This document shows positions 1 through 38,284 of a DNA stretch of 38,284 nucleotides, piece by piece (position 1 is the first letter of the stretch; every line of letters begins with the position of its first letter). The notes below the pieces were generated by a model. That model was given only the letters and a program-made list of their open reading frames with translations. It ran no database searches and was not told the DNA's origin. The position numbers and the translations under genes are program-made. This stretch comes from a virus. Where the stretch lies: positions 1 through 38,284 of IMG/VR virus record IMGVR_UViG_3300000277_000007; one strand, 5' to 3'.

Positions 1-34
1 GCACTTTTGGAAACCGCCAGAGATGGCGGTTTTC
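1..34. repeat. Left copy of 34-bp terminal direct repeat (att core / attL, or circular-assembly overlap)
   Basis: gcacttttggaaaccgccagagatggcggttttc is identical at 1-34 and 38251-38284. Confidence 0.85.
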
Positions 35-110
35 CTTTATTCTCCAACGGTTTTCAGACTTTCCTAATTCACTCCAATTCACTCCAAATCACGTCATTTC
101 TCTATAAAAC

Positions 111-128
111 GTGGGCAAAATGTGGGCA
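111..128. promoter_or_regulatory. Candidate integrase arm-type site (GTGGGCA aaat GTGGGCA), right of att core
   Basis: The 18-bp gtgggcaaaatgtgggca also occurs at 38151-38168. The two copies flank the att core at about 75-85 bp on each side in the circular form. Confidence 0.45.
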
Positions 129-133
129 CGGAA

Positions 134-634
134 TCACCAGACCATCGGCAGTCCGAGGCATTGGCGCGCCCACTGTTCCACGGCACGATTCTCCTCGTCG
201 TCGCCAAGCAGCAATAAGTATCCGGCGGGTTTTCCGTTCTTCGCATGTTCCAGCTGCTTGATTACGCCCCAGTCCTTCAAGGTGGTGATTGAGCGTTTGA
301 ATTCTTGGTTTGCAGCGCCTTTCCGCTTTTCGATGTATTCCTGGGCGTCTTCGCTCATGGCCTGCTCTGGCGATATGCCTAGCTTGCCGTAGTCGTATGC
401 GAATGTTTCGGCTCCGCGCTTGTAGTATCGGCATGGGTAGCCCTTGGCTTTTGCGTCAGGGGTTGGGCAGTTGCGCTCCGTGTCCCAGTCGTAGGTGACG
501 CTGGCCATGTAGGTGAGCAGCAGCAGTGCCGAGTTGCTTGTGGAGAGAGTGCCGTCAGCCCTCATCTTGGAGAACTTGCCCATTTGACCGAGCTGACGGA
601 TTGCGTTGAAGTTGCGGTAGCCCATTTCTTCCAT
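134..634 (-). CDS. Hypothetical protein (166 aa) in the accessory region next to attL
   Basis: ORF 134..667. The internal ATG (MEEMGYRNF...) is preceded by GGGAGGAAAG, so the likely start is 634. No recognisable motif. Confidence 0.5.
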   Translation of the reverse strand: MEEMGYRNFNAIRQLGQMGKFSKMRADGTLSTSNSALLLLTYMASVTYDWDTERNCPTPDAKAKGYPCRYYKRGAETFAYDYGKLGISPEQAMSEDAQEYIEKRKGAANQEFKRSITTLKDWGVIKQLEHAKNGKPAGYLLLLGDDEENRAVEQWARQCLGLPMVW

Positions 635-679
635 GTCTTTCCTCCCCACCTGCTGGTAAATTGGCAAGTGGAGAAATGC

Positions 680-945
680 TCGCGCTTTTCTTCATCCCCT
701 TCGGTGTGACAGCGCCGGAGGGGCTTTTCTTTACCCGTACTTATTTGTACCATTGGTAGTAGACAAATAAGTACCAACTGGCAGTACGTATAAATACTGC
801 AACCAATACTTATATGTACCATCTGTATAAGTAATATATAGATTAGTAACATTCTTTTTATAGGGGCAATGTGCAAAAAAAGAAAAAATCAGCATGTCCA
901 ACCCCCATCTGCGGTAGCTTGAAGCAAGGAGAAGGAAGGGGAAAA
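680..945. promoter_or_regulatory. AT-rich (about 30% GC) divergent intergenic island with three direct repeats of TTAT(T/A)TGTACCA
   Basis: acttatttgtacca / caaataagtacca / atacttatatgtacca in a genome that is otherwise about 60% GC. Lies between divergent genes. Confidence 0.5.
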
Positions 946-1731
946 ATGAAGAAACTGATTTACCTCGTGCTATCCGTGCTGTGCGGAATCTCCGGTATCT
1001 ACGGCATATACGACACCATCACCACGCCGAAGTACGATCTGGCCACAAGCATCATGACGGTTCTGCTCCTCGCATTCCTCGCATGGTTCTTCTGGCATCT
1101 CTTCCTCAAGCCTGAGCCACGCCATAAGCATCAAGCGACGAATGCGCCTGAATCATCGCCGGAAGCCACCTCAGACGCTCCAACAGTGGAAACGGCACCA
1201 ATCACCCACGTCAATGCGAATAGTGGCGTGGAGGACGATTACGTGGCTGTGGATATTGAGACCACCGGCCTAGGTCGTGACGCTCGAATCATCGAATTGG
1301 GAGCCGTGAGAATCAGGCACGGACGCAAGGTCGCGTCATACAGCCAGCTCGTCAACCCGCAGATTCCGATACCGGCCAAGGTCACGCAGATCACCGGCAT
1401 CACCGACCGGAACGTCAAAGGCAAACCCACCATCGACAAAGCGCTACCCAAGTTCTACGCTTTCTGTGGGCGTGACACTTGGATAGGCCACAATATCCGA
1501 CGCTTCGACATTCCGGTGATCGCCAGGGAGGCGCAGAGGGTCGGCGCCGGAATGCCGGACGTGAGCTTCTACGACACGATGGAATTATCCCAGGCATTGC
1601 TGCCGCAGCTTGACCACCATCGCGTAGTGGACCTCATTCGATATTTCGGCATCGCCAAGACCGAGCGGCATCGCGCCGCCGACGATGCTGCACAGACAGC
1701 GCAAATCTTCGAGCATTTGAAGCAGATATAA
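946..1731 (+). CDS. Membrane-anchored DnaQ-like DEDDh 3'-5' exonuclease (2 N-terminal TM helices, low-complexity linker, exonuclease domain)
   Basis: ATG at 946 follows GGAGAAGGAAGGGG. TM segments MKKLIYLVLSVLCGISGIYGIY and IMTVLLLAFLAWFFWHLFL. Exo I motif DIETTGL, Exo II GHNIRRFDIPVI, Exo III HRAADDAAQTAQIF. Confidence 0.8.
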   Translation: MKKLIYLVLSVLCGISGIYGIYDTITTPKYDLATSIMTVLLLAFLAWFFWHLFLKPEPRHKHQATNAPESSPEATSDAPTVETAPITHVNANSGVEDDYVAVDIETTGLGRDARIIELGAVRIRHGRKVASYSQLVNPQIPIPAKVTQITGITDRNVKGKPTIDKALPKFYAFCGRDTWIGHNIRRFDIPVIAREAQRVGAGMPDVSFYDTMELSQALLPQLDHHRVVDLIRYFGIAKTERHRAADDAAQTAQIFEHLKQI

Positions 1732-1733
1732 GC

Positions 1734-1762
1734 TTTATAAAGACTTATAAAGACTTATAACC
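1734..1762. repeat. 10-bp tandem repeat TTATAAAGAC x about 2.8 between convergent genes
   Basis: ctttataaagacttataaagacttataacc. Confidence 0.6.
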
Positions 1763-1763
1763 G

Positions 1764-2351
1764 CTAGCTGATTTTCGCGTCGAGAAACGCATGATCGCCA
1801 TCGACATAAGCCCGCTCGATTAGCTTATGCGTCGCGGCGTAAATAAGATCATTGGACGGATACTCCTTCGCCATCTGACTTTGGATGTCCTGATCGGAAA
1901 TCGACGGGTCAAGAATCTTCGCCATGATGGGGAATACGCTGCTGATCTCGTCATGCGGCCCATCGACGTAGACGCGGAGCATGTCGTTTTTCCCGTATCC
2001 GAGCACTGCCCCGTAGACCAGCACGTCCACTGACGATTGGCCGAGTCTTCCGTGGAGAGCGTCTGCGGTGGAGAAAGCGCCGGTGCGATACTCCGCCCGG
2101 TAATAGGGGCCGTTCGAATCGCTCGGCGTGAATTTCTCGACGTCGGTTATCGGCGTGGATGAGTTCGCGTTGAACTCGTCCACAAAGCTCTGCGCCGTCT
2201 TCTCGGCTGCCTGTTGTTGTGGCTTCTCCTGCTGTGCGCTGACGTCCGGCGTCTTGGCCGGCGTGGAATCCGGCTCCTGCTGGCTTCCGCAGCCACAGGC
2301 CGTCGCCAGGAGAAGCGTCGCAGCTGTGATGGCAATGATTTTCTTACGCAT
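1764..2351 (-). CDS. Prophage lipoprotein (signal peptide plus lipobox LLLATAC), candidate superinfection-exclusion protein
   Basis: MRKKIIAITAATLLLATACGCG. Last gene of the leftward repressor operon. Confidence 0.7.
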   Translation of the reverse strand: MRKKIIAITAATLLLATACGCGSQQEPDSTPAKTPDVSAQQEKPQQQAAEKTAQSFVDEFNANSSTPITDVEKFTPSDSNGPYYRAEYRTGAFSTADALHGRLGQSSVDVLVYGAVLGYGKNDMLRVYVDGPHDEISSVFPIMAKILDPSISDQDIQSQMAKEYPSNDLIYAATHKLIERAYVDGDHAFLDAKIS

Positions 2352-2814
2352 TGAAAAACCTTTCTTTGATTCTATTTGGCGATGTGTTGAGCATGGCTCG
2401 GTAGTCCGTGAGCACCTGCGTTGTCACGTTCAGTTCCTCGGCTATCGACCATAGGTCATCGTCGTACATGCGTTCCGCCAATGCTAGTTCTGCCGGATCG
2501 ATGAGCAGGCGCGCGGTCTGCCGCCGTGTACGGATCTCTACTTTCGAACTATTGTTCGCACAGCCGGTGTCGCCATGCCGCCAATGCAAGAGCTCGTGCG
2601 CGAGAGTGCACCGTTTGGCCGTGTATGTGAGCCTGCGGTCGATCAGTATCACCTCGGTCGCGGCGTCGTAGCAACCCCAAAGGCCATCGGGGAGAATGGC
2701 GCTGGATACGGTGACCGGCAGTCCGACAATCGCGCGGCGCATGGCGCCGTATGTCATGCGCCGGTCGATAGGCAGGTCAGGCAGGCTCGTCGTAATCCGG
2801 CCCAGCCTCTCCAT
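2344..2814 (-). CDS. ImmA/IrrE-family zinc metallopeptidase (HEXXH)
   Basis: LAHELLHWRHGD motif. ORF 2344..2901; start chosen at Met30 (2814), which follows GGAGG. Overlaps the 3' end of the repressor gene. Confidence 0.7.
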   Translation of the reverse strand: MERLGRITTSLPDLPIDRRMTYGAMRRAIVGLPVTVSSAILPDGLWGCYDAATEVILIDRRLTYTAKRCTLAHELLHWRHGDTGCANNSSKVEIRTRRQTARLLIDPAELALAERMYDDDLWSIAEELNVTTQVLTDYRAMLNTSPNRIKERFFNA

Positions 2815-3139
2815 TGATGGCCTCCTGCTTGCCAGCGGCGTCATAGGCGGCAAGACCATAACCGCCTGCCTGCGCTTTCCTCTCGGCGGCTTCGACCGCA
2901 TGGCGCTTGGAGTCCATCACGATGTCTCCGATGGATACGCCGGTCACTTCGCTGATGCGTTCCAGGTCGCTCAGGTTGAGCGGGAGGCTGTAGTTTGCCC
3001 TCGTGTACCAGTAGACCTCGCCGAAGCCGCAGGCCTTGGCGAATTCCTTGATGGTCATGCCGCTTTGCTTTTGGAGTCTGACGCATTCGTCCATGACCTG
3101 CTTGGCGAAATGCGTGACCTCCTGTGCTTTTCTTCCCAT
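2777..3139 (-). CDS. XRE-family HTH repressor (CI-like)
   Basis: HTH segment GMTIKEFAKACGFGEVYWYTRANYSLP. Divergent from a Cro-like gene and upstream of ImmA. Confidence 0.8.
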   Translation of the reverse strand: MGRKAQEVTHFAKQVMDECVRLQKQSGMTIKEFAKACGFGEVYWYTRANYSLPLNLSDLERISEVTGVSIGDIVMDSKRHAVEAAERKAQAGGYGLAAYDAAGKQEAINGEAGPDYDEPA

Positions 3140-3190
3140 GCTTCAAATTATAGCTAATTGCGTAGTCATATGTGCATAAATCGTGAAGAC

Positions 3191-3228
3191 TACGTAATTA
3201 CGAATACGAGAAACTTCGTAATTACGTA
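3191..3228. promoter_or_regulatory. Operator: 13-bp perfect inverted repeat ACGTAATTACGAA N10 TTCGTAATTACGT with nested CGTAATTACG palindromes
   Basis: Read directly in the repressor/cro divergent intergenic region. Confidence 0.7.
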
Positions 3229-3256
3229 TATTAAAAACCGTCGAAAGGAAAACCGA

Positions 3257-3385
3257 GATGTTGAGCACCAAGAAGACCAAGACCCCCGACCACTACCCGT
3301 GCGGCCACATGCGCGGCCCCGGCTGGCACGACTGGCGCGCCTGCCTCACCAAGCAGGGAATCGAGGAGGATGAATGGCCGGTCTG
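3257..3385 (+). CDS. Small Cys/His-rich ORF (42 aa) overlapping the start of the cro-like gene
   Basis: MLSTKKTKTPDHYPCGHMRGPGWHDWRACLTKQGIEEDEWPV. GAAAGGAAAACC sits before the ATG. GC3-rich codon usage. Confidence 0.3.
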
Positions 3386-3622
3386 ACGGAAACAGCCACC
3401 AGAAACCTCAAAGCGGAACTCGCAAGACACGACAAGACACCGAAAGACCTAGCAAAAGCATGGGGCCTCGAAATCAGAGCCGTAAACAACAGGCTCAAAG
3501 GCCACACGCCACTCTCGACAGACGAAATCGAAAAAGCGGCATCCATGCTCGACATGGAACCAGAAAACCTCATCATGCTCCTCATCCAGCCGATCGACAG
3601 CATCAAACAATTCAAAGCCTGA
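3374..3622 (+). CDS. Cro-like HTH regulator
   Basis: TPKDLAKAWGLEIRAVNNRLKG HTH. First rightward gene after the operators. Confidence 0.7.
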   Translation: MAGLTETATRNLKAELARHDKTPKDLAKAWGLEIRAVNNRLKGHTPLSTDEIEKAASMLDMEPENLIMLLIQPIDSIKQFKA

Positions 3623-3646
3623 AATCCACAACCAAAGGAGCGTCCG

Positions 3647-3871
3647 ATGGACAGCAAGACCTACACCCGAGAACTGCGCAAAGCCTGCGTGAAAGCCGTC
3701 TTCGACGAATTCGCCGAGCATGGCGACATGATTCGCCCGCAATACGCGGGACAGTGGGATGAAATCGACGCTAGCCGATTCCTGGGCCACATCACCGGAC
3801 CGATGGACATCGACGTGACCGGCCTCGTGGACGTCATCATCGACACGATCGTCAAGGAAGCACAGAAATGA
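3647..3871 (+). CDS. Hypothetical early protein
   Basis: ORF track; RBS GGAG before ATG. Confidence 0.5.
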   Translation: MDSKTYTRELRKACVKAVFDEFAEHGDMIRPQYAGQWDEIDASRFLGHITGPMDIDVTGLVDVIIDTIVKEAQK

Positions 3872-4098
3872 GCGGACAACTGCTTAACCCGCCGGCACCG
3901 CCGGAATCAAGGAAAACCATGAAACCACGAATCGAACTCATCGGCACCACCGGCTACGCCATCCGCATCCAGGAAGACAAGAGCGGCCAACTCATCGAGC
4001 TCCACGCGGACGGCGAGGAAGTCCTTGCGGACATCCCTGAAAGCACCCTCGACAACTTCGCCTACAGCCTCAACGACGACTTGGGAAACATGCGATGA
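3868..4098 (+). CDS. Hypothetical early protein
   Basis: ATGA start/stop overlap with the previous ORF. An alternative start at 3919 has an AAGGAAAACC RBS. Confidence 0.45.
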   Translation: MSGQLLNPPAPPESRKTMKPRIELIGTTGYAIRIQEDKSGQLIELHADGEEVLADIPESTLDNFAYSLNDDLGNMR

Positions 4099-4289
4099 GC
4101 CAATCATTCGAACTGCGAATCATCGAGGACGGCACCACTCGCAGCGACCATTCAGCCGTCATCCAGCTCGCCATCGACACGTGCGACAGCCACGCGCGAT
4201 ACCTGCTCACGCAGACAGACCTGGCGAACATCCGCCGCGACTGCAACCGCATCTTGAAGGAACTATCCGAAAGGAGGATGGCGAAATGA
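4095..4289 (+). CDS. Hypothetical early protein
   Basis: ATGA coupling. Confidence 0.45.
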   Translation: MSQSFELRIIEDGTTRSDHSAVIQLAIDTCDSHARYLLTQTDLANIRRDCNRILKELSERRMAK

Positions 4290-4510
4290 CCGACCACAAC
4301 TACTGGCTCGAAGACCAGCGGGAGAAGACGCGGAAGCCGAACTACACGCGCCGCCGCATCAAATTCGCCATCGCGGTGGTCGCCCTCATCTCCAGCCTGA
4401 CCATCATGCTCACATGGCATGGCGGCAGCACCACCGCCGCGCTCATGGTGGAAGGCGTGTACATCGCCGCCGCATTGTGGCTGATCGTCAGATTCGCGCC
4501 ACGCGACTAA
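4286..4510 (+). CDS. Small membrane protein (2 TM)
   Basis: AGGAGG before ATG 4286. IKFAIAVVALISSLTIMLTW and VEGVYIAAALWLIV. Confidence 0.5.
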   Translation: MTDHNYWLEDQREKTRKPNYTRRRIKFAIAVVALISSLTIMLTWHGGSTTAALMVEGVYIAAALWLIVRFAPRD

Positions 4511-4949
4511 AGACTTCCCACCAGCCGACAGTCCAACGAAACAAACCAAATCTGGGATGTTTTCGCGGACACCCACGTTCACTCATGCCGGCTGGCGGGA
4601 ACCATAACTGAATATCGATTATTATCCACGCGCCGACCACATTCTGCTTTCACATACACTGTCGGCGCATTCGGCTGGGCGACGGTTCGCCCGTCCACGG
4701 ATTCCAATCTCTTCTCTCTAACTATCAAGAAGCAGGCATTCCGGTGCTTGCAAACCCTTTCAAGCCCGCCTGACGGCTTCCATCACCGTCGGCCACGCCA
4801 CCGGCCGCGAACGCGTTCAGGTCGCGTTCCAACAGTCAAAGGGGCGTTCGGAATCCAAGGACGGCATCGGTTCGACACCGACGCCAGCCACTCAGCCCCA
4901 TCCACTCGTCATGGTGGGGCACACAACGTCAACAAGCAAAGGAAAGTCA

Positions 4950-5714
4950 ATGAGCAATGAAATCCAACAGTTCTACTTCAATAACGCTGCGTTGCGTACC
5001 CTGACCGACGAGGCGGGGGAGCCCTGGTTCGTCGCCAAGGACGTATGCGACATCCTCGAAATCAGCAATCCATCCGATGCGTTGAAAAGGCTTGACGATG
5101 ATGAACGGTCTAGGTTCAATCTAGGGCGTCAGGGTGAGACCAACATCGTCAACGAAGCCGGCCTGTACGCGCTCGTGCTCGGCTCCCGCAAGCCCGAGGC
5201 TCACGAGTTCAAACGTTGGGTGACTCACGAGGTGCTGCCGCAGATCCGCAGGACCGGCGGCTACATTCCAGCCAGCGAGACCGACGATGACATGACCATC
5301 CTGGCGAAGGCCGTGATGATCGGCCAACGCACCATGGAGGAGCAGAAGCGTCGCATCGCCGCGCAGGAATCACACATCAATGAATTGGAGCCGAAAGCCC
5401 GGTTCGCGGACGCCGTGGCCGCGTCGGACGGCACCTGCCTGATCGGAGAACTGGCGAAGATGCTACGCCAGAACGGTTTGGACATCGGCCAGAACTGCCT
5501 TTTCGAGATTCTCCGACAGGACGGCTACTTGGGCAAGACCGGCTCGAACCGCAACGTGCCGACCCAGAAGGCCATGGACTTGGGACTGTTCCGAATCAAG
5601 GAAACCGCCATCACCCATTCGGACGGCCACGTGACCATCAACCGCACCGCGAAGGTCACCGGCAAAGGCCAGACATACTTCATCAGCCGCTACTGCCCAG
5701 ACGACCATGAGTGA
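4950..5714 (+). CDS. Antirepressor (Bro-N domain plus KilA-C/Ant C-terminal domain)
   Basis: N-terminal FNNAALRTLTDEAGEPWFVAKDVCDILEI (Bro-N). C-terminal ARFADAVAASDGTCLIGELAKML (KilA-C). Confidence 0.75.
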   Translation: MSNEIQQFYFNNAALRTLTDEAGEPWFVAKDVCDILEISNPSDALKRLDDDERSRFNLGRQGETNIVNEAGLYALVLGSRKPEAHEFKRWVTHEVLPQIRRTGGYIPASETDDDMTILAKAVMIGQRTMEEQKRRIAAQESHINELEPKARFADAVAASDGTCLIGELAKMLRQNGLDIGQNCLFEILRQDGYLGKTGSNRNVPTQKAMDLGLFRIKETAITHSDGHVTINRTAKVTGKGQTYFISRYCPDDHE

Positions 5715-5928
5715 CGATCTGCTTACGCCAGCCGAACTGGCCGCCATGCTCGGCATGAGCGTGCGCACGCTCGCCAACTGGCGGAGCACCGGCAAGGGCC
5801 CGCCATATTTGAAAATCGGCGTGGAACCGCCGGAAGGCCATCAGGACAGGCGAAAAGTCCGCTACCAGCGTCAAATCGCTGAACGGTGGGCTCTGGCGCA
5901 CGAATACCGAAGGACGGTGGCGAGATGA
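5707..5928 (+). CDS. HTH_17 (MerR/excisionase-like) DNA-binding protein
   Basis: TPAELAAMLGMSVRTLANWR. Confidence 0.6.
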   Translation: MSDDLLTPAELAAMLGMSVRTLANWRSTGKGPPYLKIGVEPPEGHQDRRKVRYQRQIAERWALAHEYRRTVAR

Positions 5929-6104
5929 AAAACGGCACGTTCATTCCAGTGACACGGGTCCAAAGCCGCTCAGATGTCAAAAGCGATGGGAAAGCACGCT
6001 TCGGCGACAACAATCCGACCCTCACGCAGCAAGGAATCGACGTGGACAAGTTCATCAGCGACAACCACGCGCTCATCGAAAACTTAAGGAAAGGAACACG
6101 TTGA
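5925..6104 (+). CDS. Hypothetical protein
   Basis: ATGA coupling. Confidence 0.4.
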   Translation: MKNGTFIPVTRVQSRSDVKSDGKARFGDNNPTLTQQGIDVDKFISDNHALIENLRKGTR

Positions 6105-6736
6105 AACACGAATACACGGACGGCGAACTCGCCGAACTGAAGAAAATCTATGACGAGTCAGGCGAAGCCGGACTCCAGATCGGCGAAATGCGGGCGTTAC
6201 GCAAGGCCGGACTCCTCGCACATGACCTGCCGCCGGAACATGAGGACACCCTTGCCGACTATCAGGCCATCAGCAAGCCCACGACGGAACCGGCGGAACC
6301 GTCGAAACGTGACCTCATTCTCGCGCACTGCAGAAACCGCATCGACCAAGGCCAACCATTCGACGGCAAGGAAACCGCCGAAGCGCTCAACCTAAGCCAG
6401 AAAACGGCAGGCAACATCATCGGCCAACTCCGCAAGGAAGGACTACTACCGGCCTTCGACCAGCATTCACCCCGCAAAACAACACGGAAAAACGCCACAA
6501 CCGGAAAGAAGAAAGAAACCATGACCACCACAGTCCAGGAACAGAAGCAGGAAGCCGAGCCGGAAGAGCCGCGCACCATCATCGCAAACGCCTTGGTCGG
6601 CATCTTCGACGCGGTGAGCACATTGCAGCGCACCGCATTCCAAGCCAACGACAAGGTGGTCTACGGCTTCGCTACGAAACTGCTCACCGGCGAACTCATG
6701 GACATTAAAGCCAACTACAGCAAGGACGCAAAATGA
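6101..6736 (+). CDS. Hypothetical protein with a possible winged-helix segment
   Basis: GKETAEALNLSQKTAGNIIGQLRKEGLL. Confidence 0.5.
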   Translation: MKHEYTDGELAELKKIYDESGEAGLQIGEMRALRKAGLLAHDLPPEHEDTLADYQAISKPTTEPAEPSKRDLILAHCRNRIDQGQPFDGKETAEALNLSQKTAGNIIGQLRKEGLLPAFDQHSPRKTTRKNATTGKKKETMTTTVQEQKQEAEPEEPRTIIANALVGIFDAVSTLQRTAFQANDKVVYGFATKLLTGELMDIKANYSKDAK

Positions 6737-6909
6737 AGCTCAAATTCGATAGCGAGAGTGGCGTTTTCACCATCAAGCCAGAGTCATTGGCGGAAACCGT
6801 CAAGCTCAGGACGTCCGCGTTGGACATCGCCAATCTGCTGGTCGATTATTTCGACGCCGACGTCATCAAAGCAGACATAAACAAGCCAAGCAATCAGCAG
6901 GGAGCCTGA
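6733..6909 (+). CDS. Small hypothetical protein (58 aa)
   Basis: ATGA coupling; fills the gap exactly up to the next gene. Confidence 0.4.
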   Translation: MKLKFDSESGVFTIKPESLAETVKLRTSALDIANLLVDYFDADVIKADINKPSNQQGA

Positions 6910-6910
6910 A

Positions 6911-7873
6911 ATGAAGCGTATTCCACTCAAGGACACGGAACGCTACACGGTCGAACGGTTCAAGCAGGGCAAGAAGACGGAACGTCATCTCGCCTGGCTG
7001 AAGAGCCGTAAGGCCGGTGTGGGCGGTTCCGACATGAGCACGATTCTCGGCCTGAATTCCTTCAAGACGCCTTATGAGCTTTGGCTTGAGAAGACCGGCC
7101 GCGTGGAGCCGGAGGACATTTCGGACAAGTGGGCGGTGGTCAGGGGCAATGCCCTGGAAAACGAATTGCGCAAGCGATTCCGCGCCCAGCATTCCGAACT
7201 GCTGGTCACTGACGGTACGGACAAGCAGTTCATCAGCCGCGAAAAGCCCTATCTGAGGGCTTCCCTTGACGGCATCCTGCAGAAAGAGAACGGCGATTTT
7301 GGAATCCTCGAAATCAAAACGGCGAGCGGCCGTCGAGCGGGGGACTGGCATGACGAGGATGGCAACCTCCGAATCCCGCCATACTACTTGGCTCAAGTCG
7401 AATTCTACGCGCTCGTCACCGGCTGGACGTGGGGCTATGTCTACGCGGCCATCGGGGACGACGAGCCGGTAGAGATTCCCTTCGAGGCGGACGTGGAGGA
7501 TATGGCCGCGATCGACAAGGCCGCCACCGACTTCTGGCATTTCGTCACCACAGGCACGCCACCGCAATTGACCGGCGGGGACGTGCAGAAGGCGTTCCCA
7601 GAGCCCACGCCGGACATTGTGGACGAAAGCGACGATGACGACCTGTACGACCTGCTCGCAAGATACGAGAGCGCCACCGGAATGCTGAATGACATGAAGT
7701 CCGCTCAGAAGGAATTGCAGGAGCAGATCATTCTGCGCATCGGCTCGCACACCGGCATCAAGTGCGGGAATTTGCAAGCCACCTACAAGCCGATGACCCG
7801 CAAGGAATACACCGTCAAAGCCACCACATACCGCAAATTCACACTCAAAACCATCGAAGAAAAGGAGCAATAA
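6911..7873 (+). CDS. YqaJ-like viral recombinase exonuclease (lambda Exo/RecE-like PD-(D/E)xK)
   Basis: GGSDMSTILGLNSFKTPYELWLEKTG ... ILEIKT. Lies upstream of recT. Confidence 0.8.
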   Translation: MKRIPLKDTERYTVERFKQGKKTERHLAWLKSRKAGVGGSDMSTILGLNSFKTPYELWLEKTGRVEPEDISDKWAVVRGNALENELRKRFRAQHSELLVTDGTDKQFISREKPYLRASLDGILQKENGDFGILEIKTASGRRAGDWHDEDGNLRIPPYYLAQVEFYALVTGWTWGYVYAAIGDDEPVEIPFEADVEDMAAIDKAATDFWHFVTTGTPPQLTGGDVQKAFPEPTPDIVDESDDDDLYDLLARYESATGMLNDMKSAQKELQEQIILRIGSHTGIKCGNLQATYKPMTRKEYTVKATTYRKFTLKTIEEKEQ

Positions 7874-7876
7874 AAA

Positions 7877-8740
7877 ATGGGAGCAATCGCACAGCAGGCG
7901 CAAGGGCAGCAGTTGCAGCCGCTCAATCCGAAGGGCAAGCTCAAGCAGCTTGTGGAGCATTCGTGGCCGCAGATCGCGCGTGTCATCGGCGGCAACCTCG
8001 ACAGCGAGGCGCTGTTGCAGATGTGCATCAGCAGCATCAACCGCACACCCGCCTTGGCCGACTGCACGCCGGTCAGCGTCCTTTCCTGCTTCATGCAGTG
8101 CGCGGCACTTGGCTTGCGCCCATCCGACGTGGATGGATTGGGACAGGCGTACATCCTGCCCTATGGCAACAAGAACTATGCCACGGGGGAGAAGCAGGCC
8201 ACCTTCGTCATCGGCTACAAGGGCATGCTGAAACTGTTGGAGAACAGCGGCATCTACGCGCAGCCGAGAGCCGTCTACGAGGATGACAACATCAAGCTCA
8301 AGCTTGACGAAAATGGCGTGCCGACCATCGAATGCCCGGACGAGGTGAACGTGGACGCCGACCACAGCGAGGACAAGCTGAAATTCGTGTACCTCTCTGT
8401 CCAGCTGCCGAATGGCGGACGCTACGCCGACTACATGTCGAAACGCGACCTGCTCGAATACCGCGAGAAGTACGCGCCACGCAATCGCAGCCGTCAGATC
8501 ACCGGACCGTGGGTGAAGAATTTCGTGGAGATGGCGAAGAAGACCATCATCCGTCGCAGTTTCAAATATCTGCCGGTCAACATCGAGGCGAAGAAGGCCG
8601 CGAGCGTGGACGAGACCACACCGGATTACAGCGACGTGTTCCAGCCGGTAATCACCGATTCGACTGATGACGTGACCGCCGAAGTCATGGAAGCGGATAC
8701 GCCGGAGGATACAGAAGCCGACGTGAAGGAGGCTGAGTGA
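7877..8740 (+). CDS. recT: RecT-family ssDNA-annealing protein
   Basis: RecT-like core ([11 protein letters not shown] ... IGYKG), following the exonuclease gene. Confidence 0.75.
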
Positions 8741-34697: not shown

Positions 34698-35524
34698 ATG
34701 GGCATCAGACAGCAGACGATTGACGATTACGGTGCGTTCGTGGAGAAATTCAAGCCGAAGAAGACCACGGACGACTGCTACACCCCCCCGAAGTATATGA
34801 GGCGATAAAGGACTGGGCATGCCGTGAGTATGGCATCGACCCCAGTAAGGTGGTGCGACCCTTCTATCCGGGCGGCGACTACGAGAGTTTCGACTATTCG
34901 GACGGCAAGGTGGTGGTGGATAATCCGCCGTTCTCGATTCTGTCGAAGATATGCACGTTCTATCGTGACCGTGGTATTCCGTTCTTCCTGTTCGCGCCGA
35001 ACCTCACGATTTTCAGCAGCACGTCGCGCAACGGCGCGCATATGCTGGTCACTGATTGCGCGATCGAATACGCCAACGGCGCCATCGTCAACACCAGCTT
35101 CGTGACGAGTTTCGGCGATGATCTGATTCGCACCGCGCCGGATCTGACGAAGCTGGTCAACGATGCGGTGAAACGAGTCAGGCGCGAAAGCAGGAAACAT
35201 CTGCCGAAGTATGCGTATCCGCCGGAATTGTTGACCGTCACGCGCCTGAACAAGGTCGGCAAGGCTGGCGTGGATTTTCGTGTCAAGGCTTCGGACGTGG
35301 CATTCACGCCTAGGCTCGCTTCGCAGAATGCCGTGAAGAAGGCCATCTTCGGCGGCGGCTATCTGATGAGCGAAGCCAAGGCTGCGGAACTGAAGGCTGC
35401 GGAACTGAAGGCCGCGGAACTAAAGGCCGCAGAACTAAAGGCCGCAGAAGACGTGACAGTCTGGCCTCTCTCCGAAACCGAAAGGCGGATCATCGAAAAC
35501 CTCGCGCAAGAATCGCGCGGTTGA
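34698..35524 (+). CDS. Phage Dam-type N6-adenine DNA methyltransferase, interrupted by a frameshift in a C7 homopolymer (34783-34789): frame 0 from 34698 to 34808, then frame +2 from 34850
   Basis: Joined translation reads ...KTTDDCYTPPEVYEAIKDWACREYGIDPSKVVRPFYPGG ... VVVDNPPFSIL ... AIFGGGY. One extra C restores the frame. Confidence 0.6.
35378..35449 (+). repeat. In-frame 15-bp tandem repeat, about 4.8 copies, (KAAEL)n
   Basis: aaggctgcggaactg x2, aaggccgcggaacta, aaggccgcagaacta, aaggccgcagaa. Confidence 0.8.
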
Positions 35525-35561
35525 ATTCCTGTTGGAATATTTTGCACCCACATGCAACATC

Positions 35562-35608
35562 GCCCCTCTCTCAGCTCTTAAGCTGGGGGAGGGGCTTTTC
35601 GTGTTTTC
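35562..35608 (+). terminator. Terminator GCCCCTCTCTC ... GGGGGAGGGGCTTTTCGTGTTTT (paralogue of 34651)
   Basis: Read directly. Confidence 0.6.
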
Positions 35609-35623
35609 AGGTAGAATCTTCGT

Positions 35624-36325
35624 ATGCTCAGAATCGATGAACGTGAACTCAAGGCGAAACTCAACGAGCATAAAAGCTTGATCGGATGGGGCTCGGTTGG
35701 TGACGGAATCGGCAATCTCGTCGCCGGAGTGTTCTATATATTTACCGTCCGGACGACTTCTGGACTGCGGCAGCCGACACAATGGACTCTTTATGGCCTA
35801 GGCGCTATCATCATTGTTATCGGCGTGGCCGCGTTGTTCTCCAAGAGACTCAGTGCCGCGAAGCTCTACAAGGAAATCGAGACGATGAACAGACGGCCAA
35901 GCTCTCTTATCGCTGTCAGGGATGGCGGGAAACTGTCCAACAGGTATCTAACCTACTATGACGAGCCTTGGGGATGCTGGTTTTTGCCGAATCACAGGTC
36001 GTGCGACTCGTATCCAGAGGACAAGGCCAGAATGTCTGAATACCTTTCCACTGAATTCAAGATACCGGAAGACGATTTCACCCTTGGTTTTCTTGGAACC
36101 ACTACGAGCACGAAATGGTCCACGGCGCATAATGAGGAACGCACTTATGATTACCGGCTGTATATGGCGAAGGTGTCCGTCCTTCCCGCGGATTGGCGGT
36201 TGGATGGCGAGTTCATCGTCGGTTCGAAGCGTTGCCGTTGGATGACTTTGGATGATATGCGGAACGACCCGAAGATTTACGAGATCAACTTCGATGTCAT
36301 TCAGATGCTCGGCGATCGCATCTGA
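35624..36325 (+). CDS. Low-GC accessory protein: N-terminal 2TM plus an about 150-aa C-terminal domain of unknown function
   Basis: TM segments IGNLVAGVFYIFTV and WTLYGLGAIIIVIGVAALF. Composition well below the genome average. Confidence 0.6.
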   Translation: MLRIDERELKAKLNEHKSLIGWGSVGDGIGNLVAGVFYIFTVRTTSGLRQPTQWTLYGLGAIIIVIGVAALFSKRLSAAKLYKEIETMNRRPSSLIAVRDGGKLSNRYLTYYDEPWGCWFLPNHRSCDSYPEDKARMSEYLSTEFKIPEDDFTLGFLGTTTSTKWSTAHNEERTYDYRLYMAKVSVLPADWRLDGEFIVGSKRCRWMTLDDMRNDPKIYEINFDVIQMLGDRI

Positions 36326-36385: not shown

Positions 36386-36592
36386 TTACTCTGTTTTGTT
36401 TTTGCGTGGTCTTCCTCCGCCGACGCCGCGTCCTGGGCGGCTGGCGTTCCACCGGTCGATGGTCTCTGGCAGCCAGCCGCGCGTGCGGCCTATTAGGGCG
36501 TCCGGTTGGGGGAGCTTGTAGGCGCTGACGGCGGCTGTGCTGATGCCGAGGCGCTTGGACACATCGGTGACGCTCAGGTATTCGATGGTCAT
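36386..36592 (-). CDS. xis: Excisionase-like HTH (AlpA/Xis family)
   Basis: LSVTDVSKRLGISTAAVSAY; next to the integrase. Confidence 0.6.
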   Translation of the reverse strand: MTIEYLSVTDVSKRLGISTAAVSAYKLPQPDALIGRTRGWLPETIDRWNASRPGRGVGGGRPRKNKTE

Positions 36593-36593
36593 G

Positions 36594-36734
36594 TCAGTCC
36601 TTCCTTCCGGCGATGAGCGCGAAGACGGCGCTGACGATGGCGCATCCGGCGGTGAGCGCGAACGGCCAGCCGAACCATGCGCTGGCGGCGGTTCCGAGCG
36701 CGAACACCGCGCTGACTATCGATTCCGTTCTCAT
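36594..36734 (-). CDS. Small 2TM peptide (46 aa)
   Basis: MRTESIVSAVFALGTAASAWFGWPFALTAGCAIVSAVFALIAGRKD. Ends 1 nt before the xis start. Confidence 0.3.
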   Translation of the reverse strand: MRTESIVSAVFALGTAASAWFGWPFALTAGCAIVSAVFALIAGRKD

Positions 36735-36797
36735 GATGTTCCATGGCATAATCGGAGATGTGGGGTTCCGGCCCCTAGGTCTGGCCGGAACCCTTGC

Positions 36798-36917
36798 TCA
36801 CTTCCTCTTCTTCGGTTTCCGTCTCATCTCTTTGATGAGTCCGGTCACTGCTTTGATGAGGGCCGCGAGGCTCGCGACGAGAAGCGAGATGCTGGTGATT
36901 ATCTCCGATGGTGTCAT
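36798..36917 (-). CDS. Small single-TM peptide (39 aa) with a basic tail
   Basis: Strong RBS GGAAAGGAGGTGAAC. MTPSEIITSISLLVASLAALIKAVTGLIKEMRRKPKKRK. Confidence 0.4.
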   Translation of the reverse strand: MTPSEIITSISLLVASLAALIKAVTGLIKEMRRKPKKRK

Positions 36918-37046
36918 GTTCACCTCCTTTCCTTGATATAAACTATATTAGCGCAGTAAATAAAGTAATGCAAGCCGAAACGCAAAAAACAGAGAAAAAA
37001 ATCAACGGATTGATAGACTTGATGCCACGCAAACGAAGGGGCAAGC

Positions 37047-38216
37047 ATGGCCTACACGATCCGCCAATACCAGACGAAAAGCGGAAAAAGATACGAAGTC
37101 AGATACCGTAAGCCGGACGGCACGGACACCGGCAAACGCGGCTTCAAACGCAAAATGGACGCCGATGCCTGGGGCGCAGCGAACGTGACCACAGCTAAAA
37201 GCGTCGGAGCGTACATCGACCCACAAGCCGGAAGACGCTTGGTCGAAGACTTCTGGGAGCCATGGCTGGCCGCAAAAAAGACCAAGGCCAAACCAAGCTA
37301 CATCAAGTCATTGGAGGATGCTTGGCGCGCGCATGTCATGCCTCAATGGGGAGTACGCGAAGTCCAGTCCATCACAAGGGACGAGGTGCAGCGGTGGGTC
37401 ACCGATCTGGCAGGACGACGCAGTGCGTCAGTGACCATCCGTGCTGAAAACCTCCTGCGCAGTCTCATGGAGAGGGCAAAGGCCGATCGGTGCATCCACG
37501 ACAATCCATGCGACGGCATCGAGCTGCCGCGCAAGCAGGTGCGGAAGCATGTCTATCTGTCGGCCGATGAATTGTCTCGTGTGGCGATGCAGTGCGGGTG
37601 GCGTGAGCCGATCGTGCTGACCTTGGGCCTGTGCGGCATGAGGTGGGGCGAGCTCGTGGCGCTCCGTGTCGAGGATGTCGATCTGCAACGCTGTCGACTG
37701 CATATATATAGGAGCATCACGCGTCTTTCCAGCAGGATGGTGGAGACCGACCCGAAGACCCATGATGGACGCTCGGTGATGTTCCCCCTGGTGTTGCGTC
37801 CGCTGCTCGCCAAGCAATGCGAGGGGCGCGAGCCGTCCGATTTTCTTTTCACCGCTCCCGGCGAGCCTCTGGACGAACCGATGGGCAACGGCTGGAATCC
37901 GACGCGGCACGATGGGTGGTTCGCGGTGGCGCTTCGCCGCGCGGGCGTGGAGCGTGGCCACATGACGATTCACGATCTGCGGCATACCGCCGCTTCGCTC
38001 ATGGTGCAGTCCGGCGCTAATGTCAAGACCGTGCAAAGGCAATTGGGGCACAAGTCCGCCGCCATGACGCTCGACGTGTATGCCGACCTTTTCGACGATG
38101 ATCTGGACGATTTGTCGGAGAGAATGGGCGGTTTGCTCTTTTCGCAGGATGTGGGCAAAATGTGGGCAAAAGCGACGCAAGGCATTGATGGAACCGTTGA
38201 AACGGCAAGTGTCTGA
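37047..38216 (+). CDS. int: Tyrosine integrase
   Basis: LRHTAASLMVQSGANVKTVQRQLGHKSAAMTLDVYADL (R ... HxxR ... Y). Adjacent to att. Confidence 0.9.
   Translation: MAYTIRQYQTKSGKRYEVRYRKPDGTDTGKRGFKRKMDADAWGAANVTTAKSVGAYIDPQAGRRLVEDFWEPWLAAKKTKAKPSYIKSLEDAWRAHVMPQWGVREVQSITRDEVQRWVTDLAGRRSASVTIRAENLLRSLMERAKADRCIHDNPCDGIELPRKQVRKHVYLSADELSRVAMQCGWREPIVLTLGLCGMRWGELVALRVEDVDLQRCRLHIYRSITRLSSRMVETDPKTHDGRSVMFPLVLRPLLAKQCEGREPSDFLFTAPGEPLDEPMGNGWNPTRHDGWFAVALRRAGVERGHMTIHDLRHTAASLMVQSGANVKTVQRQLGHKSAAMTLDVYADLFDDDLDDLSERMGGLLFSQDVGKMWAKATQGIDGTVETASV
38151..38168. promoter_or_regulatory. Candidate integrase arm-type site (second copy), inside the int 3' coding end
   Basis: Identical 18-mer to 111-128. 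Confidence 0.45.
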
Positions 38217-38227
38217 AGCTTTTCTCC

Positions 38228-38253
38228 TGTGGGTTCGAGTCCCGCTGGAGGCA
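38228..38253 (+). other. tRNA 3'-end-like segment (T-arm GTGGG-TTCGAGT-CCCGC plus acceptor strand TGGAGGC-A) abutting the att core; phage-borne attP copy of the target tRNA 3' half
   Basis: Canonical T-loop TTCGAGT flanked by a 5-bp complementary stem and followed by a 7-nt acceptor strand plus discriminator. No matching 5' acceptor strand is found upstream inside the phage. Confidence 0.55.
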
Positions 38254-38284
38254 CTTTTGGAAACCGCCAGAGATGGCGGTTTTC
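38251..38284. repeat. Right copy of 34-bp terminal direct repeat (att core / attR)
   Basis: Identical to 1-34. Immediately preceded by a tRNA 3'-half-like sequence and lies downstream of the integrase. Confidence 0.85.

Follow-up and report, generated by a model that had tools for sequence, protein, structure and literature searches.

The mammalian protein TREX1 is a DEDDh 3′-5′ exonuclease anchored in the endoplasmic reticulum, with a flexible linker, and it clears DNA, including viral DNA, from the cytosol. It has been termed a 'membrane-anchored exonuclease' (PMC10875285). In bacteria, Mpr (multicopy phage resistance) of Mycobacterium smegmatis is a membrane-anchored 3′-5′ DNA exonuclease with a flexible linker (PMC12596739; 10.64898/2026.03.26.714485), and its nuclease activity is required for protection against phage D29 (PMC12596739). 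SNIPE of Escherichia coli, a GIY-YIG nuclease bound to the membrane, cuts lambda DNA while it is being injected (10.1101/2025.11.03.685801; reviewed in PMC12904381); its transmembrane (TM) segment prevents self-damage and the protein becomes toxic when this segment is removed (10.1101/2025.11.03.685801). In Pseudomonas phage Fc02, the prophage gene olg1/sie1 codes for a domain of the DEDDh exonuclease family and excludes superinfecting phages when expressed (PMC9936078). Here we analysed the virus record IMGVR_UViG_3300000277_000007 from IMG/VR over its whole length of 38,284 bp (58.6 % GC; referred to as the window), and in particular a gene at 946-1731 for which a membrane-tethered DEDDh exonuclease had been proposed from the sequence alone (the original prediction). 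We show that it is a real gene for a DEDDh superfamily protein with a predicted two-helix membrane anchor, carried in the accessory slot of Bifidobacteriaceae prophages, and we tentatively propose that it protects the lysogen from incoming DNA. With Mpr and SNIPE preceding it, the idea of a membrane-anchored nuclease degrading entering DNA is less unprecedented than the original prediction held.

The protein is a member of the DEDDh (DnaQ-like) superfamily by every criterion that could be tested, i.e. by profile, by catalytic residues and by its RNase H-like α/β fold. Pfam RNase_T (PF00929) matched residues 100-255 at 6.9e-33 with 114.9 bits (cutoff 24), and the profile was covered entirely (positions 1-164 of 164). 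Further matches were obtained to the PADLOC model of the CRISPR-associated DEDDh nuclease (6.4e-37), to PHROG 192 (8.7e-49) and to the sequence of a PolC-type exonuclease, PDB 2p1j (1e-20). The three motifs given in the original prediction, DIETTGL, GHNIRRFDIPVI and HRAADDAAQTAQIF, are all found in the translation; the catalytic residues are D103, E105, D188, H242 and D247, and N183 also belongs to the catalytic set. The AlphaFold2 model, built on a family alignment of 27 sequences (alignment A1), has a mean predicted local distance difference test score (pLDDT) of 82 and shows a compact domain with pLDDT above 90 at residues 98-261. When this structure was searched against the PDB using Foldseek, the best matches were all DNA 3′-5′ exonucleases, with a probability of 1.00 to DnaQ, PolC, DinG and epsilon structures. 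The top of the list comprised the Streptococcus thermophilus DnaQ domain, the Thermotoga PolC-type exonuclease, DinG, PolC, epsilon, Cas2-DEDDh, a TREX1 homologue and ExoX, and the target-normalised TM-score (TMt) was 0.83-0.86 for 8h2f/8h18 and for the standalone epsilon structures 2ido_A, 2ido_C, 2gui and 1j53. A 3′-5′ exonuclease activity is predicted for the domain on the basis of its sequence and modelled fold.

The N-terminal part of the protein is predicted to anchor it in the membrane. Two hydropathy peaks coincide with the AlphaFold2 helices at residues 2-26 and 32-54, and are followed by a tether predicted to be disordered, with pLDDT below 50 (residues 58-93). The two TM helices, the Pro/Ser/Thr/Ala-rich linker and the complete DnaQ-like domain with three exonuclease motifs, all read from the sequence by the original prediction, were thus recovered by hydropathy, profile search and structure modelling. 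Across the 27 family members, the N-terminal tail carries a charge of +2 to +3 in 24 and of +1 in the other three, the loop between the helices has a net charge of 0 to -4 and is negative in 24, and the segment after helix 2 is basic in 19. Because this distribution of charges, read by the positive-inside rule, puts both termini inside, we predict a two-helix hairpin with N-in, C-in topology and a nuclease domain facing the cytoplasm. An outward-facing secreted or lipoprotein nuclease was considered and rejected, as the Cys in TM helix 1 is not conserved and the charges favour N-in, C-in. The tether ranges from 23 to 51 residues across the 27 aligned relatives. The window protein has a tether rich in A, E, P, T and S, distant relatives one rich in K and R, which means that conservation extends to length and flexibility and not to composition.

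We then asked whether the protein could be a housekeeping enzyme or part of a named system. None of the cutoffs for housekeeping epsilon was reached (TIGR01406, dnaQ_proteo, 57 vs 222.7 bits; NF004316, 52.1 vs 196; TIGR00573, 67.3 vs 71.5), nor was that for PolC (NF001688, 131 bits vs 873), where only profile positions 418-584 could be aligned. The flanking polymerase, PHP and OB domains of PolC (~1400 aa, amino acids) are absent from this protein of just 261 aa. It also lacks the C-terminal extension by which epsilon binds polymerase alpha, ending about 14 residues past D247, and it has two N-terminal hydrophobic helices instead of being soluble. A housekeeping epsilon or PolC was therefore rejected on the grounds of equivalog scores far under the cutoff, the missing C-terminal tail, the TM helices and the occurrence in mobile-element contexts only; homology to a housekeeping proofreading subunit with no TM segment had been named by the original prediction as an observation that would speak against it. 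PADLOC v2 gave no full-length model match. Its candidate PDC-S48 matched at 2e-28 through the exonuclease domain alone, within the first 166 of the 411 profile positions (4-166), and a 512-position profile was matched only at 19-179, which agrees with the earlier impression that this is not a named defence system. No Cas2 domain was found in the protein using Pfam and no cas domain in the 14 other open reading frames (ORFs) of the window that were scanned; the neighbours are phage lysogeny genes and not a cas operon, as would be expected for Cas2-DEDDh. Pfam likewise gave no match to DUF4352, found in Mpr, or to DUF4041 and GIY-YIG, found in SNIPE, and the Pfam matches were solely to exonuclease families. 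The protein is thus neither Cas2-DEDDh nor Mpr nor SNIPE.

Searching a large protein collection returned 188 homologues. The best 120 share 78 % identity or more, measure 244-303 aa and carry Bifidobacterium as source name. In IMG/VR we recovered 77 viral loci, and 73 of them carry the full-length gene. The ratio of nonsynonymous to synonymous substitution rates (dN/dS) calculated by the Nei-Gojobori method on 61 distinct alleles is 0.21 overall at dS of ~0.43. Given the 188 homologues, the 73 full-length viral loci and this ratio, the gene is real and under purifying selection, not a chance ORF. The constraint is unevenly distributed, with dN/dS of 0.12 in the exonuclease domain, 0.33 in the anchor and 0.54, the highest value, in the tether. 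No change at D188, H242 or D247 occurs in any of the 60 other alleles of the 61-allele alignment (one row gapped), and D103, E105 and N183 are invariant in A1. One clade of loci (L085-L088, 68 % identity) has an exonuclease domain nearly identical to that of the window protein and 95 N-terminal residues that are very different in sequence, in which two hydrophobic helices and a tether are nevertheless retained. This replacement of the N-terminal sequence with preservation of its layout argues, at the level of sequence, that membrane anchoring as such is selected for; the dN/dS of the anchor and the layout kept at 33-57 % identity (see below) count in the same direction.

To place the protein in a wider family, we ran an exhaustive HMMER search over 1.84 billion cluster representatives. 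It resulted in 27,317 DEDDh relatives, only 48 of them at E ≤ 1e-30. Among these 48 and those just below are full-length relatives of 238-269 aa that share 33-57 % identity and keep the layout of TM helices, tether and exonuclease, so that homologues of the same architecture, which the original prediction had suggested looking for in other prophages, do exist. Where their cluster members are named, the sources are Bifidobacterium sp. and Alloscardovia omnicolens, and the relatives share a juxtamembrane motif after helix 2, K-x-D/E-P-E/D-A-R-F. A strongly hydrophobic segment is present in 45 of the best 150 representatives, by inspection mostly N-terminal to the exonuclease domain, and these 45 include proteins of 420-510 aa with extra C-terminal regions. 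Homologues from Clostridium phages occupy cargo-like positions but have no TM helices. In phiCT9441A (3785-4927 of locus L104) a soluble DEDDh exonuclease annotated 'DNA polymerase' is the last gene before attR, and in phiCDHM11 (3848-4570 of L103) another with the same annotation has ParA and the repressor in its vicinity. The carriage of stand-alone DEDDh genes as cargo of prophages may be more widespread.

The gene is variably present. Four prophage contigs of ~40 kb (L092-L095, at about 1080-1310 of these loci) carry the same in-frame internal deletion of it, and the product is a protein of 76 aa in which the start of TM helix 1 is fused to the last 60 residues. As these prophages are apparently otherwise complete, the exonuclease gene is dispensable for the phage. 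A scan of one genome per species recovered no close copy in any Bifidobacterium genome; the single close match was a contig-end fragment in a metagenome-assembled genome labelled Porphyromonadaceae, probably mis-binned. With this one close copy, the scan fits a strain-variable mobile gene. Megablast of window positions 1-8000 against sequenced phages gave one partial match, which did not cover the gene.

The window itself codes for an antirepressor, a portal protein, an endolysin and, at 37047-38216, a tyrosine integrase. Because its ends carry an exact 34-bp repeat (1-34 = 38251-38284), the window is one whole Bifidobacterium prophage from attachment site (att) to attachment site, or equivalently its circular form. 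The right repeat copy is preceded by what looks like a tRNA 3′ end, GGTTCGAGTCCCGCTGGAGGCA (38220-38253), and so the prophage is integrated at the 3′ end of a tRNA gene; ARAGORN found no complete tRNA in the window, and the repeat itself forms a terminator-like hairpin. In relatives L005 and L085 the left-end genes, with the 165-aa ORF first, come immediately after the integrase, which corresponds to the circular junction. Two different host neighbourhoods flank the left-end cassette in relatives (L001 vs L002).

Within the close family the gene order is host/att, a 165-aa ORF (minus strand), the exonuclease (plus), a variable small ORF and/or a lipoprotein (minus), Peptidase_M78 (minus) and a helix-turn-helix (HTH) repressor (minus), after which come cro-like and early genes (plus). 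A homologue of the downstream M78 gene is found in 69 of the 73 viral loci and one of the repressor in 64, and in many of the 73 the exonuclease gene lies ~1 kb from the prophage end. The prophage accessory position between att and the repressor operon, with a lipoprotein gene adjoining, therefore stands as originally read; it is marked by the terminal repeats, the integrase and the M78 and HTH genes on the minus strand. We also fetched six loci of distant relatives (Alloscardovia and others), in which the gene occupies the same integrase- or att-proximal cargo slot and the neighbours include toxin-antitoxin and candidate defence genes. The order is integrase, SocA_Panacea, Fic, exonuclease, ..., DUF3800, M78 in Alloscardovia; integrase, Panacea-Fic or DUF3800, exonuclease, ..., SSB, ParB in a second arrangement; and integrase, exonuclease, HicB, HicA, HIRAN, M78 in a third. 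A fourth has integrase, a 71-aa ORF, exonuclease, a second DEDDh protein of 520 aa and a KilA-N protein, the last matching the PADLOC candidate PDC-S22 at 9e-107, and a fifth has integrase, Panacea or HicAB, ..., exonuclease and repressor-like genes. All fetched loci are prophages, prophage-like integrative elements or phage contigs, save for one contig of 2.2 kb that is too short to judge, so the frequent occurrence outside mobile elements that could have spoken against the original prediction was not seen. The position of the gene is that of prophage exclusion or defence cargo: it lies in the lysogeny/accessory region and varies between related phages.

Two of the distant neighbourhoods deserve a separate description. 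In L107 (7001-10266) and L108 the TM-exonuclease gene is convergent with that of the 520-aa DEDDh protein (RNase_T and DEDDh_C, partial PDC-S48 match), after which comes KilA-N, and two different DEDDh exonucleases are thus adjacent in one prophage cargo slot. In the Alloscardovia loci L096-L099 (5525-16744), M78 is followed not by phage structural genes but by the restriction-modification pair MvaI_BcnI and DNA methylase or by a T5orf172/ResIII protein, and this region looks like a defence island or a decayed prophage.

Our preferred interpretation, to which we give a probability of roughly 45 %, is that the prophage expresses a nuclease which degrades incoming DNA at the membrane, in superinfection exclusion or defence. 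It is based on genomic context and on analogy. The exonuclease would be made by the lysogen, and the two-helix hairpin with its tether of ~40 residues would hold it at the inner face of the membrane. There it would meet the free 3′ ends of entering linear DNA, i.e. of phage genomes and possibly of transforming DNA, and by trimming these ends it could block circularisation or establishment of the incoming molecule. The chromosome would be spared, as it offers no free ends and the enzyme could not leave the membrane. In favour of this role, the active site is intact and constrained, the closest solved relatives are DNA 3′-5′ exonucleases, the anchor appears to be selected, the slot is conserved in several prophage lineages and the phage can do without the gene.

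Several points weigh against a role in exclusion or defence. As a rule, such DEDDh enzymes work on 3′ ends that are single-stranded or frayed and lack processivity on duplex DNA, and we know of no such enzyme that on its own destroys long duplex genomes. The protein has no recognisable targeting or DNA-binding domain, while SNIPE needs DUF4041 and Mpr needs DUF4352, and none of the PADLOC models is matched over its full length. A scan for the sigma-70 consensus found no promoter match in front of the gene. Moreover, two longer relatives (P0151 and P0160) adjoin HNH-TerS-TerL genes, and the TM-exonuclease architecture is therefore not exclusive to lysogeny cargo. As 3′ cohesive overhangs would be a possible substrate, we searched the literature for the genome-end chemistry of Bifidobacterium phages and found none published.

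The neighbourhood of the terminase genes in P0151 and P0160 would suit a protein that serves the life cycle of the phage itself, by processing or repairing genome ends on entry, by aiding replication or recombination at the membrane, or as a proofreading partner of the host polymerase. PHROG 192 and the source annotations do name such proteins 'DNA polymerase exonuclease subunit', and in the lineage the exonuclease gene is far more constant than the lipoprotein (M78 in 69/73 loci vs the lipoprotein in 30/73). We nevertheless regard this alternative as unlikely. Between the gene and the replication module (RecT and SSB in relatives) lies the repressor operon in opposite orientation, the protein, with only a few residues after D247, lacks a tail for binding polymerase or clamp, the scores for epsilon and PolC are far below cutoff, and the internal deletion in the four ~40-kb prophages did not prevent their being apparently otherwise complete.

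The anchor could also serve to sequester a toxic nuclease from the nucleoid, with infection or membrane damage releasing or activating it, e.g. through cleavage of the tether, and the protein would then be an effector of abortive infection. This we consider improbable, as an exonuclease requires free ends and an intact circular chromosome has none, and no conserved sensor or protease partner was seen, the neighbours differing between lineages. The toxin-antitoxin neighbours in relatives (Panacea-Fic and HicAB) agree with such an effector, as do the long disordered tether, which is the least constrained part of the protein, and the toxicity of SNIPE without its TM segment (10.1101/2025.11.03.685801).

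Another version, with a similarly small chance in our opinion, is a barrier to transforming or conjugating DNA and not to phages, in which trimming of single-stranded 3′ ends would guard the lysogen and its prophage from competing mobile elements. Architecture and position speak for it in the same way as for phage exclusion, structures of this fold are known bound to single-stranded DNA or 3′ overhangs (DinG, ExoI, ExoX, TREX2), and transforming DNA enters competent Gram-positive bacteria 3′ end first. To our knowledge, however, natural competence is not established for Bifidobacterium, and cargo in this slot is classically aimed at other phages. Finally, a membrane 3′-5′ RNase, nanoRNase or second-messenger degrader with an anti-defence or regulatory role is hardly probable: the DEDDh superfamily includes RNase T, Orn and ERI1, there is a weak Pfam match to the Rv2179c-like exoribonuclease family (28.6 bits vs cutoff 27) and RNases turn up further down among the Foldseek matches, but DNA exonucleases give the best matches in both sequence and fold, and an anti-defence enzyme has no obvious need for an anchor or a place in the lysogeny module.

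The features of the left end of the window are collected in Table 1. Regarding the start of the gene, some database entries use a GTG at 871 (286 aa). We rejected it in favour of the ATG at 946, because a strong ribosome-binding site precedes the latter and because distant relatives begin with M-K/R-K directly before TM helix 1. The layout of the intergenic region (668-945) suggests, from its sequence elements, an independently regulated unit. It contains a perfect 12-nt inverted repeat, GTACTTATTTGT at 737-748 and ACAAATAAGTAC at 763-774, with a third copy at 807-817. Comparison of 58 unique upstream sequences showed the repeat motif kept in 10 and the AT-rich repeat part variable; a leader of ~85 nt (about 860-945) is conserved among them. 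An RNA element in this leader was considered and rejected, as there was no Rfam match in window positions 1-4000. The original prediction had described an AT-rich island in front of the gene and taken it as a sign of horizontal acquisition. The island is there, in the form of a stretch with 31 % GC at 725-880, but it is no evidence of recent acquisition, as the gene (56.2 % GC, GC3, i.e. GC content at third codon positions, of 0.70) has the composition of the other genes of the prophage (58.6 % GC, GC3 ~0.71) and only 725-880 is AT-rich.

Table 1. Features at the left end of the 38,284-bp window, with positions counted from its first nucleotide.
Feature	Position	Strand	Evidence and remarks
Left copy of the 34-bp terminal repeat (att core/terminator)	1-34		Right copy at 38251-38284, after the integrase and the sequence like a tRNA 3′ end
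Divergent neighbour, 165-177 aa, att-proximal	134-667	-	Precedes the exonuclease gene in the close family, not in distant relatives
Terminator-like hairpin followed by a T-run, upstream of the gene	696-723	+	Would insulate the gene from att/integrase read-through
AT-rich divergent intergenic region with operator-like repeats	725-880		31 % GC; putative promoter region
Ribosome-binding site AAGGAGAAGGAAGGGG	926-941	+	Strong; ends 4 nt before ATG 946; within the conserved leader (~860-945)
Membrane-tethered DEDDh 3′-5′ exonuclease (predicted), coding sequence	946-1731	+	261 aa plus stop; Pfam, PADLOC and PHROG matches; 188 homologues; dN/dS 0.21
TM helix 1 (predicted), residues 4-22	955-1011	+	Kyte-Doolittle 1.97; AlphaFold2 helix 2-26; positive N-terminal tail
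TM helix 2 (predicted), residues 32-54	1039-1107	+	Kyte-Doolittle peak 2.24 (residues 36-54); AlphaFold2 helix 32-54
Flexible tether, residues 58-97	1117-1236	+	Rich in A, E, P, T, S; pLDDT <50 at 58-93
DEDDh (DnaQ/PolC-type) exonuclease domain, residues 98-261	1237-1728	+	PF00929; 2p1j; Foldseek; pLDDT >90
Exo I motif, D103-I-E105	1252-1260	+	Invariant in A1
Exo II motif, N183-x4-D188	1492-1509	+	H182, N183, F187 and D188 invariant in A1
Exo III motif (epsilon type), H242-x4-D247	1669-1686	+	H242 invariant in A1
Predicted lipoprotein, 195 aa, convergent, optional cargo	1764-2351	-	Lipobox-type N-terminus MRKKIIAITAATLLLATAC; weak matches to lipoprotein N-termini
Peptidase_M78 (ImmA-like) gene and HTH repressor operon	2344-3139	-	Bounds the cargo slot; Pfam

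The divergent 165-177-aa ORF occurs in 45 of the 73 viral loci, where, among those listed, variants of ~50 % identity are found alongside near-identical copies. Searches of Pfam, PHROGs, NCBIfam and PADLOC gave no match for it. It is retained in prophages with the exonuclease deletion, and its C-terminal part is winged helix-like by eye; possibly it regulates the divergent region. Of the 73 loci, 30 have the lipoprotein, which did not match the Ltp family. An ORF of 96 aa takes its place in L001-L006, and in other loci it is replaced or joined by one of 96-98 aa. The lipoprotein could itself be an exclusion protein. Neither of the two was accepted as an obligatory partner of the exonuclease, since neither accompanies the distant relatives and the lipoprotein is found in just 30 of the 73 close loci.

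The right part of the window also contains ORFs that resemble cargo. Between the endolysin/holin region and the integrase (34850-36325, plus strand) there are two, the first coding for a protein of 224 aa with an (AELKA)n repeat and the second for one of 233 aa with predicted membrane helices. Neither has a family match, apart from a sub-threshold Pfam 'Decapeptide' match in the 224-aa ORF (20.6 bits vs cutoff 45). Upstream of the integrase and divergent from it (36386-36923, minus strand) lies a 68-aa ORF that is HTH/excisionase-like by eye (MTIEYLSVTDVSKRLGIS...), together with two ORFs for small hydrophobic peptides of 51 and 41 aa; in relative L005, ORFs of 68, 51 and 39 aa upstream of the integrase match them in position and orientation.

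If the exonuclease does act on incoming DNA, it would be a very small defence gene, a single gene for 261 aa, whose selectivity comes solely from the location of the enzyme. The principle of the entry-site nuclease, as in SNIPE, Mpr and Zorya, would extend to the commonest exonuclease fold and to prophages of an important group of human gut bacteria. It could help to explain the superinfection resistance, and perhaps the poor transformability, of lysogenic strains, and it would add a family for which annotation tools such as PADLOC v2 report no system. We would go further only tentatively, at somewhat short of even odds, and suggest a minimal one-protein immunity in which location tells self from non-self. 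An ordinary DnaQ-type exonuclease would be made selective by its membrane tether and be widely carried as exclusion cargo by temperate phages that infect gut Bifidobacteriaceae and, probably, other Gram-positive bacteria, as a bacterial counterpart of TREX1 that is independent of Mpr and SNIPE. If instead the protein belongs to the DNA metabolism of the phage, it would point to membrane-associated end processing in actinobacterial phages, which would also be new but of narrower interest. As a clean candidate for a one-gene defence system the protein has strong comparative support; until Mpr and SNIPE became known, the proposal would have come as more of a surprise.

We found no paper describing a TM-anchored DEDDh protein of a phage. 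The strategy of stationing a nuclease at the membrane is known; the DEDDh fold, the minimal architecture and the carriage by Bifidobacteriaceae prophages have not been described for it. The PolC/DnaQ-like domains (PF00929; PDB 2p1j, 8h18, 2ido; N-terminal domain of DinG, 8zef) have the same fold and the same D-E-D-D-H set, but they are soluble parts of replicases, helicases and CRISPR adaptation proteins, whereas the window protein stands alone on a two-helix anchor, without a polymerase, helicase or Cas2 part, and is encoded in a prophage lysogeny module. PDC-S48 proteins have a long C-terminal part that is absent from the window protein. Olg1/Sie1 comes from a different phage group and host, has no membrane anchor reported, and is likened to the window protein by description only. 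TREX1 is eukaryotic, has a C-terminal tail anchor and is only 25-26 % identical to the window protein over the domain, so the likeness is an analogy and not orthology. Mpr is chromosomal, has a nuclease region unlike known nucleases and needs its C-terminal DUF4352, while the window protein has a canonical DEDDh domain, lacks DUF4352 and is borne by a phage. With SNIPE the window protein shares, by prediction, an N-terminal membrane anchor followed by a cytoplasmic nuclease. In SNIPE, however, a single TM segment is combined with a GIY-YIG endonuclease and with a DUF4041 domain, which binds both DNA and the tape measure protein, whereas the window protein has two TM helices, no middle domain and a DEDDh exonuclease.

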